Of a stretch of DNA of 64,000 nt, positions 506 to 51,042 are shown in pieces. The notes under the pieces were generated by a model, which was not told the origin of the DNA, made no database searches, and was given only the letters and a program-made list of their open reading frames with translations. The DNA comes from Octopus vulgaris (Eukaryota): the NCBI GenBank assembly GCA_951406725.2, contig OX597817.1, positions 82,894,001 to 82,958,000 of the forward strand, in the 5' to 3' direction. A program made the position numbers and the translations under genes. Each line of letters opens with the position of its first letter. Within the stretch, counting starts at the first letter, position 1.

Positions 506-582
506 ATGTTTGGCTGAAGAAGGTAAAGCAAATATGGGTGAGAGACATATCTTGCAAAACCTGAAACCTGCAGGTACCACAT
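506..582 (+). ncRNA. Type I hammerhead ribozyme motif
   Basis: Reads atgt-tt-gg / CTGAAGA (514-520) / helix II aggt...acct with inner gcaa-atatg...catat-c-ttgc / GAAA (563-566) / helix III cctgcagg / TA (GUA triplet) / ccacat, which pairs with the 5' arm. Confidence 0.85.
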
Positions 583-1684
583 TATCCATTTTCCGGGTGT
601 TTCATCTTACAGATGTTCTCCCTGGAGGTAAGACGGTTTTTTTTTCTCTATTTTGTTGCACACACGCATTTTTACTAATACATACGCGGTGAAGGTACAC
701 ATTAGCGTCGTAATTTTACGTTCGCTATTTCCAGTAAATATCGGTACTTTGTTGTGCCATTTATTTACTAATTTGTATATATATATATATATATATATAT
801 ATATATATATACACACACACATATATTCATATATATATATATATATATATATATATATATATATGTATACTAGCAGAATTGCCCGGCGATGCTCGGGGCT
901 GAATTACTTGAAAGTACTGTTAATGATTGCACTGAATTATGATGATTATTCAGGCAAATATTGACATAAGTTTACGGCGAATGAATGTATTTGTAAGTGT
1001 ATAGAAAGCCGTGTAAAGGGGTTCCTAACCCCTCGTAGAATGGTGTAAGAATTGAATGCGAGGTTGCCTTGAAAAGAGCCATGTTATTGTTCTCATAATT
1101 GTAAGAATTTGATAGTCGTGGAAGGCGGTGTAAAACGTTCGCAGGTGAATAGGGTATCTTCCTTTTCCACGAACGGCAGCGGATGTGCTGTTACAAAACT
1201 TCATGCTGTGTTAAAAGAGAATGGATGCCCTATGTAGGCAAGAGGGAAATGAAGCATGGGTAAGTAAATATGGGTAATTTATAAAATATAGAACAATAAC
1301 ATCTACTCACCATATGTCAGACCGGCAAGAATGTAGTGGTGCTGAATAGATGAATCACAACACAGTTGTGGAGAGGTTTTCATTGATGGGCGCTATGATT
1401 AAATTTGTTGTTGTATAAAATGATCTGTTGCTTAGTTTCCAAAGTGTATGTTGCGATCGTGTTGTCGCTTATGTAAACTTTAACAGTGAGAGTGTAGATG
1501 TAGGGTGTAGATGTGTCATGTACGTTGGATATAGAAGATGAGGCTGGTGGTTTGATGATGAATGCATAGAAATAGAGGTGAGCGAAGGACAGGTGTTGGT
1601 TAAGTGTGAATTAATGTCATGAAACGCCTAAAAATGTAAATGCCATCATAAAAGAGAGTCGTATGTAAGTGAAATACTAACGTG

Positions 1685-3125
1685 TTAGAAAATGATGAAA
1701 CGTAATCCTATAAAACTTCCTTGTACACAATGATTTTTTGTTTTTCGTTGTGGAACGAATGCGAAAGCATCACTGTTGCTGCCGACACGCGAGCAGGCAA
1801 CATAAAGCTGACCATGAGAGAAACATGGCTCTCCCAAATGTATTCCCGCCACAGACAGTGTTTGACCCTGCGCTTTGTTAATTGACATTGCGAAACATGG
1901 ACTTACTGGGAACTGGGACCTCCGAAATATGAAAGGTAGGTCTGTTCCTGATGGGAAAAGATGCATCCTAGGTATGAGCACAACGTTGCCTCGACCGCAC
2001 CCTGTGATAATGGTGGCCTCAATCAGATTGGGAGATAAGGACTTAATGATGAAACGTGTGCCATTGCATTGTTTTGGGGGAACCAAATTTCTAATGAGCA
2101 TTATAGGGGCACCAACTTTAAGTTTGAGAATGTGTGGTGGTAGTCCAGGGGGCTCAAAGGAATTGAGTACCTCTATTGGATAGTTGACGTCCTCTGGGTC
2201 AGGAGTTGTATCGATAGACTTATATACATAGACATCCCCAGCAATGAGTTTTAGCATTTCATCATTAATATGGTGAACAGTTGTATTCCTCGGGGCCAGA
2301 ATGGCCCTTTGGCCAATCCAATCCATATTCCTTGTAGATCTGGGAACACTGCATATCTGAGATCAGAAGGCGTTTTAACAATGGTACAAATGGAATCGAT
2401 GGCAATATTACCATTTTCATCCCCTGGTATTTTGCCTTCGTCAAGTGCAAGGAGGGTGTGAGAAAATGCTGCTGATGTGATATCACGTCGCATATGAGCA
2501 TGCGTATTGATGTGAAGTTTGAGAGTCTTCACCAGTGGCCACAATGTGGATGACTTAAGACACGCACTTACTGCATCAGCTGTAGTCCCTTTGGGAATAA
2601 CGGGAAGTGTTTGTCGGAAGTCCCATGAAAGAAGAAGTGTTATGCCTCCAATGGGAGCTGACGAGTGTTTGATGTCTCTGAGAGATCTATCCAGTGCCTC
2701 AAGAACACGTCTGTGGGCCATCATGCATTCATCCCAAACGATAAGCTTGCATCGTCTGAAGACTTCTGCCTGATCGGAGCTGTTACTGATGTTGCAAGTT
2801 GGTGTCTCAGTCTTCGCTAAGTCAAACGGGAGCTTGAAAGTGGAGTGAGCTGTCCTGCCGCCTGGCAACAAAGTAGCCGCAATTTCAGATGATGCCACAG
2901 CTAGGGCAATGCCTTGTGTTCGCCTAATGTCAGCCAATATTAATTTGTTGACAAAAATTTTCCCAGTGCCCCCAGGAGCGTCCAAGAAAAAAATCCCCCC
3001 AGCTTTGACCCGGACTGAATTAACAGCGGAGTTGTAAGCAAACTTCTGTTCTGGAAGGAGCTTTGGCTCATTGTCGGCTATGTACTCGGCAAGCTTGTCA
3101 ACATTAAAACATGTCTCACGCAGCA
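1685..3125 (-). pseudogene. Helitron RepHel PIF1-family (SF1B) helicase, C-terminal part, frameshifted
   Basis: Motifs DAPGGTGK, IVWDEC, (W)DFRQTLPV, LKVGAPIMLIRNL, NGTR, QFPVSPCFAMSINKAQGQT and HGQLYVACSRV are spread over ORFs 2251-3231 and 1685-2326. There is a frameshift near 2330 and no Rep domain. Confidence 0.93.
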
Positions 3126-3149
3126 AATGTGAAGACAGAGTGTTTGTGC

Positions 3150-3240
3150 CTACACATGCCAAGTCACCACACAGTGGGACTGAACCCAGGTCCATGTGTT
3201 TGGAACGTAGTTTGTTACCACACAGCCACACCTGCCCCTA
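3150..3240 (-). mobile_element. SINE family A 5' head fragment
   Basis: cagtgggactgaaccc...ttaccacacagccac matches the tRNA-like head of the copies at 11253-11658 and 54557-54966. Confidence 0.75.
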
Positions 3241-48465: not shown

Positions 48466-49155
48466 CTATCTATCTATCTACCATCTATCTATCTATCTAT
48501 CTATCTATCTATCTATCTATCTATCTATCTATCTATCTATCTATCTATCTATCTATCTATCTATCATCTATCTATCTATCTATCTATCTATCTATCTATC
48601 TATCTATCTATCTATCTATCTACCTATCTATCTATCTATCTATCTATCTATCCATCCTTCTCCCCCATCCCTCCCTCCACTTTCTCTCTCTCTCTCTCTC
48701 TATATATATATATATGTATATGCGTATATGCATGTATATATGTATATTTCTATGTATGTTTTTATGTATATTTATAGGTATATATATACGTATAATATGC
48801 ATTCTATCTTTTTCAACTATATATATATATATATACATATATATATATATATATACACACACATAAATACACACACATATATATATATACATAATACACA
48901 CATATATATATATATAAATATACATACATGCATACACATATATATACATATATATACATATACATTCATACATATATACATATGCATTCATACATACATA
49001 CATATATATGCATTCATACATACATATATAAATATATATACACAGACATAGGTATATGTATATACATGTATATATATATATATATATATATATATATATA
49101 TATATATATATTATGTATATATATATATATATATATATATATATATATATATAAT
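48466..49155. repeat. (TATC)n followed by compound TA/CA microsatellites
   Basis: Directly visible. Confidence 0.9.
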
Positions 49156-50481
49156 ATAAATAGCTGTAACAATATCTGTTTATCCATACCTATACCCCTG
49201 TGTCTGTCTATCTATATATGATCTTTCTGTATATATATGCATGTGTGTGTGAGTGTGTGTGTGGTGTGTGTGCGTGTATGCATGTATATATTTATATGTT
49301 TACGTATATTTATATATAATTATATCTATTACTATAAGTATTTATCCCTCTCCATGTATATACATATATATCAATTGAAAGCTGATCTAACCTGCAGATA
49401 TGTGAGCATTTATATTATGTATACGTAGTTCTTCATGGCATGGCACCTTGTTTTTCTATTTCATTTTACAATTATTTATATTTAGTTAAGTTAAAAAGCA
49501 TGACCTACTTGGTTTCCAAGTGTGACAAATTGTTGGAGCACATATGCGTGGATCTTCCATCACTAATATTAGTGAATTATATTATGTTTTGAAAGGCCCG
49601 GTCTCTTAACCCATGCCATTCCAAAATGATGGTACATTCAGCAGAAAACAAAGCCCAGAGGGAGAGAGAGAGAGAGAGAGGGAGAGAGAGAGAGAGAGAG
49701 AGAGAGAGAGTACAGGATTATATTTTGTTTAGAAATCATCGATCTATGATGGTTAAGAAACCAGCAGAGCTACATCACTACCTTTTAGTGATGAAAGCTC
49801 CAACCATCTGCGCTCCAACAATCTATCCTACTCGGAAATCGGGTGGGTCACGCATTTTTACTTCTTAACATATAAATTACTGCCAAAAGCAAACAAACAT
49901 AAAAAACACAAGGTCATGTCGTGAAAAATTTGGTATGTATAATATACATGTACGCGTGTATGCAGATTACATCATTCTAGAATTTATCAAATTCCCAATA
50001 AAAAAAGTTAAATAATAGTTGTATTTTAATTAATTTGTATTTTCCTGCACGCACACACACATACACTCATATACACATACACACACACATATTAATAACC
50101 ATACAGCTTGCTTTCCAAAGTGCCTCTTCGTGTATCGGCTACCAGATGCCATTAAACAGTTGAACTTGTCCTTTTACTTGATATATGTGTGGAAGTCTGC
50201 GGACATCCGACGATGGCACTTTATTTAGTTATTGATGTATTTATTGAAAGTTTCTCTTATTATCATTATTAGTATGTTTATATTGTAGTTTATCTAAATT
50301 ATGTAATTTCCTAATAATTTGCATGTGCATAAAGTTATTTGGTTAAAAGTGAAACTAATATATGATGCTATATTTACTATAGATAATGATATATTATCTA
50401 TTGTAAATATAGCATCCTATAGCATCATGGTGTAGGTATAAAACAACGAGAAAATAAAGGTGATATAGCAATGCTTTAAAC

Positions 50482-50700
50482 CAGTGGTTTTCAACCAGGG
50501 TTCCGCGGAACCTTAGGGTTCCGCCAGTACAGTCCAGGGGCTCCGCAAGAAGTTACAAAACTGCTAAAATCGACAGTAATTTTTAATTCTCCTGTGCAGA
50601 TATGTGTGCATAAGACTATCAAATTATTGCACAGAGGTTCCTCGAGACAGTTGAATGTTTCCTTGGGATTCCGCTCCAGCAAAAATGTTGAAAAGCACTA
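50482..50700. mobile_element. hAT-Charlie-like MITE
   Basis: TIRs CAGTGGTTTTCAAC and GTTGAAAAGCACTA, a perfect 8-bp TSD CTTTAAAC (50474-81 and 50701-08), and repeated GGGTTCCGC subterminal motifs. Confidence 0.92.
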
Positions 50701-50957
50701 CTTTAAACCCTATTAATATGAAGTATATAACGATTGTTGAAGCGTATTAATGCAACCAAAGCTGCACATAGATAGAATCATTGCATTTATTGTACAACAT
50801 TCACATTCAACAGACTCTCTTTCTACGCGAGTTGCAGGTTCCAAGGAAGGTGAATGATAAACAAATAACAGATGGATTGTGTTTTTGGTCTGTAGAGTCA
50901 AAAATGGCATTTTTACGTTGGAACTCGAATGTTTAAAATGTTTAATTTTTACATGTA

Positions 50958-51042
50958 TTCACCTGATGAAAACAGTTTTTCTGCGTGATGTAAAAACTCT
51001 ATTCATCAATAAAAAAAGCACGTCTGAAACAACTGTAGTGAA
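50958..51042 (+). ncRNA. Type I hammerhead motif, partly decayed
   Basis: Reads ttcac CTGATGA aaac...gtct GAAA caactg TA gtgaa. Helix I is a perfect 5 bp with a GUA triplet. Helix II has one mismatch, and helix III is one change from the palindrome cagctg. Confidence 0.6.

Follow-up and report, generated by a model that had tools for sequence, protein, structure and literature searches.

Type I hammerhead ribozymes with long helix II domains in a 64-kb stretch of the Octopus vulgaris genome and the retroelements that are likely to carry them

A stretch of 64,000 nucleotides (nt) of Octopus vulgaris DNA (contig OX597817.1, positions 82,894,001 to 82,958,000; hereafter the window), which belongs to a 2.8-Gb assembly of 227 contigs, holds six type I hammerhead ribozyme motifs. 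Their carriers almost certainly form five families, namely, one protein-coding Penelope-like element (PLE; motifs D and E), two retrozymes that lack an open reading frame (ORF; families A and C), and two old relics (families B and F). It is very probable that a PLE enzyme moves retrozymes A and C in trans, and the best evidence for this is that both obey the PLE two-end rule, by which the two arms of an insertion end at different points of the element. The overall account that we consider likely is that of a PLE, two retrozymes copied in trans, and two relics, with an RNA circle and two starts of synthesis as the mechanism. The system as such is published and does not constitute a novel class of elements. 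Its novelty lies in the families themselves, in a long helix II common to autonomous and ORF-less elements, in the high density of motifs, and in the two-end rule, which links the retrozymes to PLE enzymology.

Hammerhead motifs and their excess over chance

The first-pass annotation of the window had reported six cores of five distinct sequences, all of type I with a long helix II, and all but one with a GUA triplet. All six lie within the stretches that it named (Table 1), the helix III strings are as quoted, and the helix II domains (42-115 nt) fold into two stems, basal and upper, with an internal loop between them. The CUGANGA and GAAA boxes, A15.1-U16.1, and H17 are present in five of the six copies, which are named here by their first core base, C3; copy 18289 has a G at H17 and is the sole one with G instead of A at the cleavage position, where its family has A. 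Helix III had been called tiny and self-complementary or nearly so. The self-complementarity stands, but at 8-12 nt the helix is not of the minimal type, and 18289 and 50963 are degraded copies.

Table 1. Hammerhead motifs and their carriers in the window (the first core position given is C3)
Feature	Positions	Strand	Details
Hammerhead A	506..585	+	core 514-520; helix II domain 521-562 (42 nt); palindromic helix III 566-575; predicted cut after 576
Hammerhead B, degraded	18150..18296	-	core 18289-18283; helix II domain 115 nt; helix III 18164-18157; G at cleavage position 18156; helix I broken
Hammerhead C	21529..21624	+	core 21535-21541; helix II domain 61 nt; 12-nt self-complementary helix III 21606-21617; predicted cut after 21618
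Hammerhead D, PLE 3' untranslated region	35626..35720	-	core from 35709; helix II domain 55 nt; predicted cut after 35636
Hammerhead E, same sequence family as D	38168..38263	+	core 38180-38186; helix II domain 55 nt; helix III 38245-38252; predicted cut after 38253
Hammerhead F, degraded	50958..51042	+	core 50963-50969; helix II domain 56 nt; helix III 51029-51036, one change vs family palindrome
Family A insertion	466..780	+	sense arm 502-780 (unit 357-431 then 1-203); inverted arm 466-504 (unit 226-264); (TA)n on both sides
Family B relic	18000..18420 (ends approximate)	-	old multicopy family, 72-83% identical
Family C insertion	21147..21851	+	sense arm 21321-21851 (unit 183-481 then 1-234), ends on short (TA)n
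Family C inverted arm	21147-21299		unit 43-196; abuts another repeat
PLE main arm, 5'-truncated, probably Hydra clade	35419..37781	-	positions 1369-3734 of the intact copy at locus L132
Junction filler, 114 nt	37782..37895		exact inverted copy of flanking DNA 38578-38691
PLE inverted second arm	37895..38321	+	element positions 3159-3585; ends on (TA)n
Family F relic	50882..51080	+	old multicopy family, 75-87% identical

A loose scan of the window for CTGANGA...GAAA gave 21 matches, five of which belong to the six motifs; the sixth motif, at 18289 on the minus strand, has a longer insert. A strict type I descriptor (core, 3-bp helix I, 4-bp helix II, self-complementary helix III, H17) keeps 514, 21535, 35709, and 38180 and finds no site in any of 200 block-wise dinucleotide shuffles, while a relaxed version adds 50963 together with one junk site (22967), at a shuffle mean of 0.315, and still misses 18289. 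This descriptor was devised after the motifs had been seen; a less circular test is a 1-Mb genome sample (100 stretches of 10 kb at chosen round-number positions on large contigs), scanned with a descriptor that makes no demand on helix III pairing. It contains 19 sites, compared with 0-2 (mean 1.3) in 20 shuffles, and 16 of these have a self-complementary helix III, which is at least 6 nt long in 11; no palindrome of at least 6 nt occurs in the shuffles. An origin of the motifs as chance matches within AT-rich repeat DNA could draw on the 21 loose matches and on the rejection of 18289 and 50963 by the strict descriptor, but in view of the shuffle counts its probability is close to nil.

Rfam contributes little here: no hammerhead was seen among the 150 of 174 matches listed for the window, its Hammerhead_1 model (RF00163) gave none at the gathering score in five family loci, and it matches 6 of 73 scored candidates genome-wide. 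The core and topology of that model are the same as here, and it misses motifs of these families; the missing matches are a limit of the model and not an absence of motifs.

The five families and their carriers

Each of the five sequences is multicopy. First-look candidates number 955 (A), 1871 (C), 973 (F), 328 (B), and 1797 (D/E), figures that are not copy numbers, only 40 candidates having been scored per family; long matches are 94-99% (A), 92-99% (C), 75-87% (F), 72-83% (B), and 97-99% (D/E) identical. Since 35709 and 38180 sit on the two arms of one insertion, the window records five events, not six. Families B and F show just short shared cores among 17 and 19 loci, respectively, with inverted arms present and neither a tandem unit nor an adjoining ORF in these loci; since members of both families normally have a perfect 8-nt palindrome with an A after it, the window copies 18289 and 50963 have decayed. 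At the base of helix II, family B (window 18282 and 18168) and a sister family of C each conserve two unpaired A residues facing one another, and in family F an A-C mismatch in the second pair is conserved.

Families A and C are built from units of 431 nt (natural tandem at locus L019) and 481 nt (L034). Each ribozyme is preceded by the final part of the same unit, head to tail, for up to ~2.7 (A) or ~4.5 (C) units; tandem arrays hold two (A) and up to four (C) complete motifs. The longest stop-free stretch is 92 amino acids (aa) in A and 66 aa in C, a tblastn search with 20 Hydra proteins on both units gave a best E of only 0.034, and the two units have no similarity to each other. Their GC content is 38% (A) and 35% (C); folded as circles, they are 59% and 64% paired, with z-scores of -3.1 and -3.5 from just 40 crude token shuffles. 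The inverted arm of the window C copy ends at unit position 196 against a very abundant repeat (21100-21146) rather than (TA)n, and was probably cut by a later insertion.

The sister family of C is 66-78% identical to it in aligned parts and has a tandem period of 488 nt. It was met at loci L335-L364 (865 first-look candidates), with the same 12-nt helix III and with C rather than A at the cleavage position. In an alignment of 10 C and 26 sister motifs, 91.1% of cells pair, vs 83.6% when shuffled and 22-48% when slid. Double-sided changes between C and its sister affect 9 of 26 pairs (three in helix I and six in helix II), and helix III is almost fixed. The earlier argument that the helices differ while the fold is kept is therefore borne out for C and its sister, but the covariation is essentially that of one family split, and 24 of 500 shuffles also reach nine pairs.

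The carrier of D and E is a PLE whose main arm comprises the end of the reverse transcriptase (RT) thumb, a linker, a GIY-YIG-type endonuclease, and the 3' untranslated region (UTR), ending on (TA)n at 35380-35418. Its ORF lies in two pieces (37781-37173 and 37221-36388) with one indel near 37209. Compared with the intact copy of the same family at locus L132, it shows 17 substitutions in 1395 columns; its own two arms differ by five substitutions across 428 columns. The L132 copy has a single ORF of 908 aa with YRDD and endonuclease-type motifs (read by eye), RIRW at 39, DKT at 126, CxxC at 868, and one Cys only in the GIY-YIG core, and the hammerhead lies 683 nt downstream of the ORF. The CxH near the C-terminus reads CPH in the window and L131 copies and FPH in L132.

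These traits agree with the marks of the Hydra clade, which according to PMC8557442 include an RWK-like motif, DKT, CxxC and CxH near the C-terminus, a CxCX5C linker, and the lack of CCHH, i.e., of a cysteine pair between the GIY- and YIG-like motifs. The CxCX5C linker, however, is absent from the L132 protein, though present in 7 of 20 related loci, and no Pfam or PDB match was obtained for this protein. The family, working like the Hydra element, is therefore a probable, not a proven, member of the clade. Two side observations concern the window copy. The source of the filler between its arms is unique flank 257-370 nt past the right end of the insertion, as if synthesis had jumped to nearby target DNA, and its 3' UTR has a 99-nt tandem duplication (36026-36208; 1.8 copies, 80%) that is seen in other copies, too.

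A search with the RT piece of a second family yielded 8012 first-look PLE candidates, many in long open frames, and 20 related Hydra-type loci were picked from 150 listed rows of these for long frames and a spread of identities. Eleven of the 20 have a sense hammerhead downstream of the ORF, representing five further sequence types, with helix II domains of 50-86 nt and an 8-nt self-complementary helix III in all. Many dispersed hammerheads of this genome are hence plain PLE 3' ends. The radiation that these loci (L315-L334) represent spans 40-80% protein identity, with open frames of up to 1091 aa and 3' UTRs of 0.4-2.4 kb, and its members surpass the published Hydra elements in size.

It could then be asked whether there are no non-autonomous families at all, and all five sequences are the 3' ends of 5'-truncated protein-coding PLEs. 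For D/E this is true; the abundance of PLE 3' ends among dispersed hammerheads speaks for it, as do the short cores and inverted arms of B and F, which lack tandem units and an adjoining ORF. In A and C, on the other hand, the upstream sequence is the same short unit, head to tail, and the C lineage has been kept as a ~490-nt unit across ~30% divergence. The tandem units refute this explanation for A and C, and as a statement about all five sequences it is very improbable. Of the several non-coding families of the first-pass annotation, A and C alone can be shown to lack an ORF; D/E is the 3' UTR ribozyme of the PLE itself, and B and F are relics that may or may not be non-coding.

Insertion signature, probable mobilising enzyme, and possible RNA template

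Insertions of A and C were collected with queries from downstream of the cut site only, at 30 loci per family, giving 28 (A) and 20 (C) distinct insertions. All 28 insertions of A and 19 of the 20 of C run through the predicted cut site, and 5' ends do not pile up there (L281 is at +6 and L243 a few bases upstream). The 3' ends lie at a TA run in 39/39 (A), 29/32 (C), and 20/20 (PLE) cases, the PLE figures here and below coming from ten picked two-armed loci. Whenever an insertion has two arms, these end at different positions: 198-203 with 260-265 in all 11 for A, and 3570-3597 with 3733-3734 in all 10 for the PLE. The same holds for all 12 of C, seven of which pair 134-143 with 230-234 and five of which have an irregular second end; a shared end point thus occurs in 0 of 33. 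In family C, the inversion point lies at ~750-760 in L034, at helix I/III of the ribozyme, and in the AT-rich upper helix II in L272; some inversions may thus be initiated where the RNA folds back at helices of the ribozyme.

For a purified PLE protein, extension of both target strands from two internal start sites in its RNA has been reported, which gives a tail unique to PLEs (PMC11167929); this tail is often found at one end only (PMC8557442). It is on this likeness that the attribution of A and C to a PLE enzyme chiefly rests. The mover quite likely belongs to a Hydra family specifically. The first-pass annotation had suggested mobilisation by PLEs like the one at 35.5-38.3 kb; PLE machinery is indeed the likely mover, judging by the insertion signature, but the window copy, which lacks the first 444 codons and is frameshifted, cannot mobilise anything, and A and C are not similar to it.

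What weighs against a PLE parentage of A and C is this lack of sequence relationship. No similarity was found to the window PLE or to 40 other PLE loci (a small share of the ~8000 first-look candidates), a looser search gave a best E of 0.01 from AT-rich 20-mers only, and no autonomous parent of A or C, or of B or F, was found in the loci examined. In Xenopus, 24 of 57 retrozyme families have a Repbase match (10.64898/2026.07.22.740005), which means that terminal homology to a PLE is not strictly defining for retrozymes. The same lack of any link to the Hydra loci examined would suit another (TA)n-targeting mover, i.e., a Naiad or Neptune PLE, or a long interspersed nuclear element (LINE), and Naiads, too, target (TA)n and are present in cephalopods (PMC8557442). 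Nevertheless, cephalopod Naiads are described there as old remnants without canonical hammerheads, the signature of two arms and two start sites speaks against a LINE, and the Hydra families of this genome stand out by long open frames, copies that are nearly identical, and a hammerhead of the same build. Judged by the Hydra loci of this genome and the published account of Naiads, a mover other than Hydra appears improbable.

The mechanism envisaged is as follows. A tandem transcript would bring two ribozymes together, whose palindromic helices III are predicted to pair between copies; cleavage would release a unit-length RNA, whose ends would then be ligated to form a circle. At a (TA)n run, each strand would be nicked by the PLE endonuclease. 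Synthesis by the RT would begin at two fixed positions inside one and the same RNA, continue across the ribozyme junction, which yields partial tandems, and break off at random, and the two truncated products would be joined head to head. Predicted energies are in line with the pairing step: as a hairpin, helix III is weak (-0.4 and -1.7 kcal/mol, and none for the 8-mers), whereas the duplex of two copies is strong (-17.7, -18.9, and -10.3 kcal/mol), and in the predicted ensemble of natural dimers the swapped helix III has a probability of 0.77 (A) and 0.997 (C), the hairpin 0.000. D and E, being on opposite strands, cannot pair through helix III within one transcript.

Whether the template is a circle or an uncut multimer can be approached through variants. 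Tandem units diverge within a locus by 1.08% in A (14 pairs) and 0.83% in C (29 pairs), with comparisons made per aligned piece and pairs that are not independent, and between loci by 1.56% and 2.89%, respectively. Variants private to one locus and present in all its pieces number 4 (A) and 13 (C), e.g., one in all six pieces of L134. Inverted arms differ from their partners at 1 in 560 sites (A) and 48 in 2313 (C, 2.1%). This pattern somewhat favours a single monomer that was copied again and again, as would happen on a circle, and an uncut multimer also fits; we give the circle a slight preference.

Several observations pull the other way. The inverted arms of C are hardly closer to their partners (2.1%) than loci are to each other (2.9%), and variant sites found in only some pieces (25 in A, 77 in C) outnumber those found in all (17 and 40). 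Run-through of the cut site would be expected from an uncut multimer no less than from a circle. The minimum-energy fold of single motifs gives the hammerhead only for C (21535), with z-scores of -0.76, -3.22, +0.63, and -1.02. The only PLE assayed in vitro chiefly used unprocessed RNA (PMC11167929), and eight of nine Xenopus retrozyme dimers remained uncleaved in vitro (10.64898/2026.07.22.740005). The same elements might therefore carry the ribozyme as a passenger or a slow catalyst, with the PLE enzyme copying uncut tandem transcripts without any circle. The motif would in that case be a protein-binding or late-processing structure. The 47 of 48 insertions that cross the cut site without a pile-up of 5' ends fit such a passenger role, as does the finding that cleavage was needless for insertion in vitro, and protein-assisted (PMC11167929), and that monomer folds mostly miss the active shape. 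It is at odds, however, with the core, cleavage triplet, and three helices kept across diverged families, which fits selection for cleavage, and with locus-private variants in all tandem units, as expected from repeated copying of one monomer. We regard this combination of an uncut template with a passenger or slow ribozyme as rather unlikely, and lean slightly towards the circle as template.

Transcript data add little. No RNA record was found for family C among the listed holders of its sequence. In contigs of four runs guessed to be RNA, family C has a depth of 3-34, compared with >1000 for flanking repeats, and contigs of this kind cannot reveal ends, strand, or level. The end of one contig at 21617, a single base short of the predicted cut, is an isolated case and is not counted as evidence. 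Joints in them that go back by 479/481 nt were considered as circles and rejected, being equal to the genomic tandem junction.

Known systems, genome-wide density, and other features

The closest known counterparts of the window PLE are the Hydra elements, including Hydra-1_Obim of Octopus bimaculoides, which is (TA)n-targeted and has a hammerhead (Craig et al. 2021, PMC8557442). Shared traits are the C-terminal GIY-YIG-type endonuclease without CCHH, RW and DKT, a late CxxC, the (TA)n target, a 3' hammerhead with self-complementary helix III arms, an inverted 5'-truncated arm, and a one-sided tail. Compared by eye, the window family differs from Hydra-1_Obim. It is longer than the published Hydra elements (3.7 kb and 908 aa vs <3 kb), lacks the CxCX5C linker, and has a tail of ~150 nt vs 30-40 nt. 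Its helix II domain is 55 nt, whereas the 26 Hydra entries in File S2 of that paper, with similar helix III arms, do not exceed ~25 nt; two non-Hydra entries flagged there as deviating have longer loops. Type I motifs with a palindromic helix III, the dimer model, many families per genome, and opposite-strand pairs are known from minimal PLE hammerheads (Cervera and de la Pena 2014, PMC4209133), and together with the circle hypothesis were already published (PMC4209133; PMC6765202). Unlike those minimal motifs, the ones described here have a helix III of 8-12 nt and a helix II of 42-115 nt, not 7-8 bp.

Non-LTR (long terminal repeat) retrozymes are known in animals including a mollusc, with PLEs as likely movers (Cervera and de la Pena 2020, PMC7229834), and have been proposed to be non-autonomous PLE derivatives in a survey of 35 genomes, in the accessible text of which no mollusc is named (Li et al. 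2026, 10.64898/2026.07.22.740005). A and C share with the elements of both papers ORF-less, low-GC tandem units with one type I hammerhead each, high self-pairing as circles, coexistence with PLEs, and the proposed PLE dependence. Their units of 431 and 481 nt exceed the 170-400 nt of PMC7229834 and lie within the 51-972 bp of 10.64898/2026.07.22.740005. They differ in the long helix II, in dispersed short arrays on (TA)n, and in that no pseudo-LTR (pLTR) homology to a partner was found. No report of these families was found in the literature searched, which for cephalopods yielded only PMC8557442 and passing mentions, most subscription papers lying outside the search. For a long helix II, the literature search led to viral motifs with 6-8-bp stems (PMC13725137).

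The mover of animal retrozymes has so far been inferred from co-occurrence and terminal homology (10.64898/2026.07.22.740005; PMC7229834). Here, ORF-less families that are young show the same insertion fingerprint, down to exact start sites, as a PLE radiation of this genome that appears to be active. With this shared fingerprint, the dependence of retrozymes and the role of PLE hammerheads can be put to a direct test, for which a 431-nt RNA and a protein encoded intact in the genome are at hand.

Scaled up from the 1-Mb sample, the genome would hold about 50,000 intact motifs (28,000-79,000). The sample is clumpy (12 sites in the first 40 stretches and seven in the other 60), and contains no A or C copy. 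At 19 per Mb, the probability of at least three events in 64 kb is 0.12, and the three intact events of the window are thus unremarkable. A helix II domain of at least 34 nt is found in 10 of the 19 sites. Minimal motifs with a 4-nt palindrome make up five; with helix II domains of 12 or 21 nt, they are at L168:7400, L200:5416, L212:8820 (approximate), L143, and L183. The results obtained here suggest that hammerheads are greatly undercounted in such genomes: the giant squid annotation lists 235 (PMC6962438), and for the 28-Gb axolotl genome the figure is 126,247, or ~4 per Mb.

A wider reading, put forward tentatively and held to be less likely than not, would join these results. The octopus genome may rank with the animal genomes richest in hammerheads (~18 intact motifs per Mb, ~50,000 in all), owing to a radiation of Hydra PLEs and their satellites, all of which would have changed to helix II domains of 40-115 nt that standard models miss. 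The 431- and 481-nt retrozymes would then be minimal natural templates of the Hydra enzyme, and one protein dimer would prime both (TA)n strands at two fixed sites of a single RNA circle; under this reading, the two fixed sites would account for arms never sharing an end point (0/33).

The window is rich in (TA)n runs and contains several further features. A broken LINE, which we take to be RTE-like, lies at 18583-20614 on the minus strand. Its RT gives a match to PF00078, and broken PIF1 helicase frames (1685-3237, minus strand; Pfam PF05970 and PF21530) are probably a Helitron piece. Short open frames at 34631-35068 (minus strand) and 42594-42974 (plus strand), without a Pfam match, resemble by eye an RT piece and a piece of a transposon protein, respectively. 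Nested inverted repeats at 8871-9956 (295 nt at 100% and 223 nt at 96%), partly microsatellite, possibly represent a fold-back element or an assembly feature.

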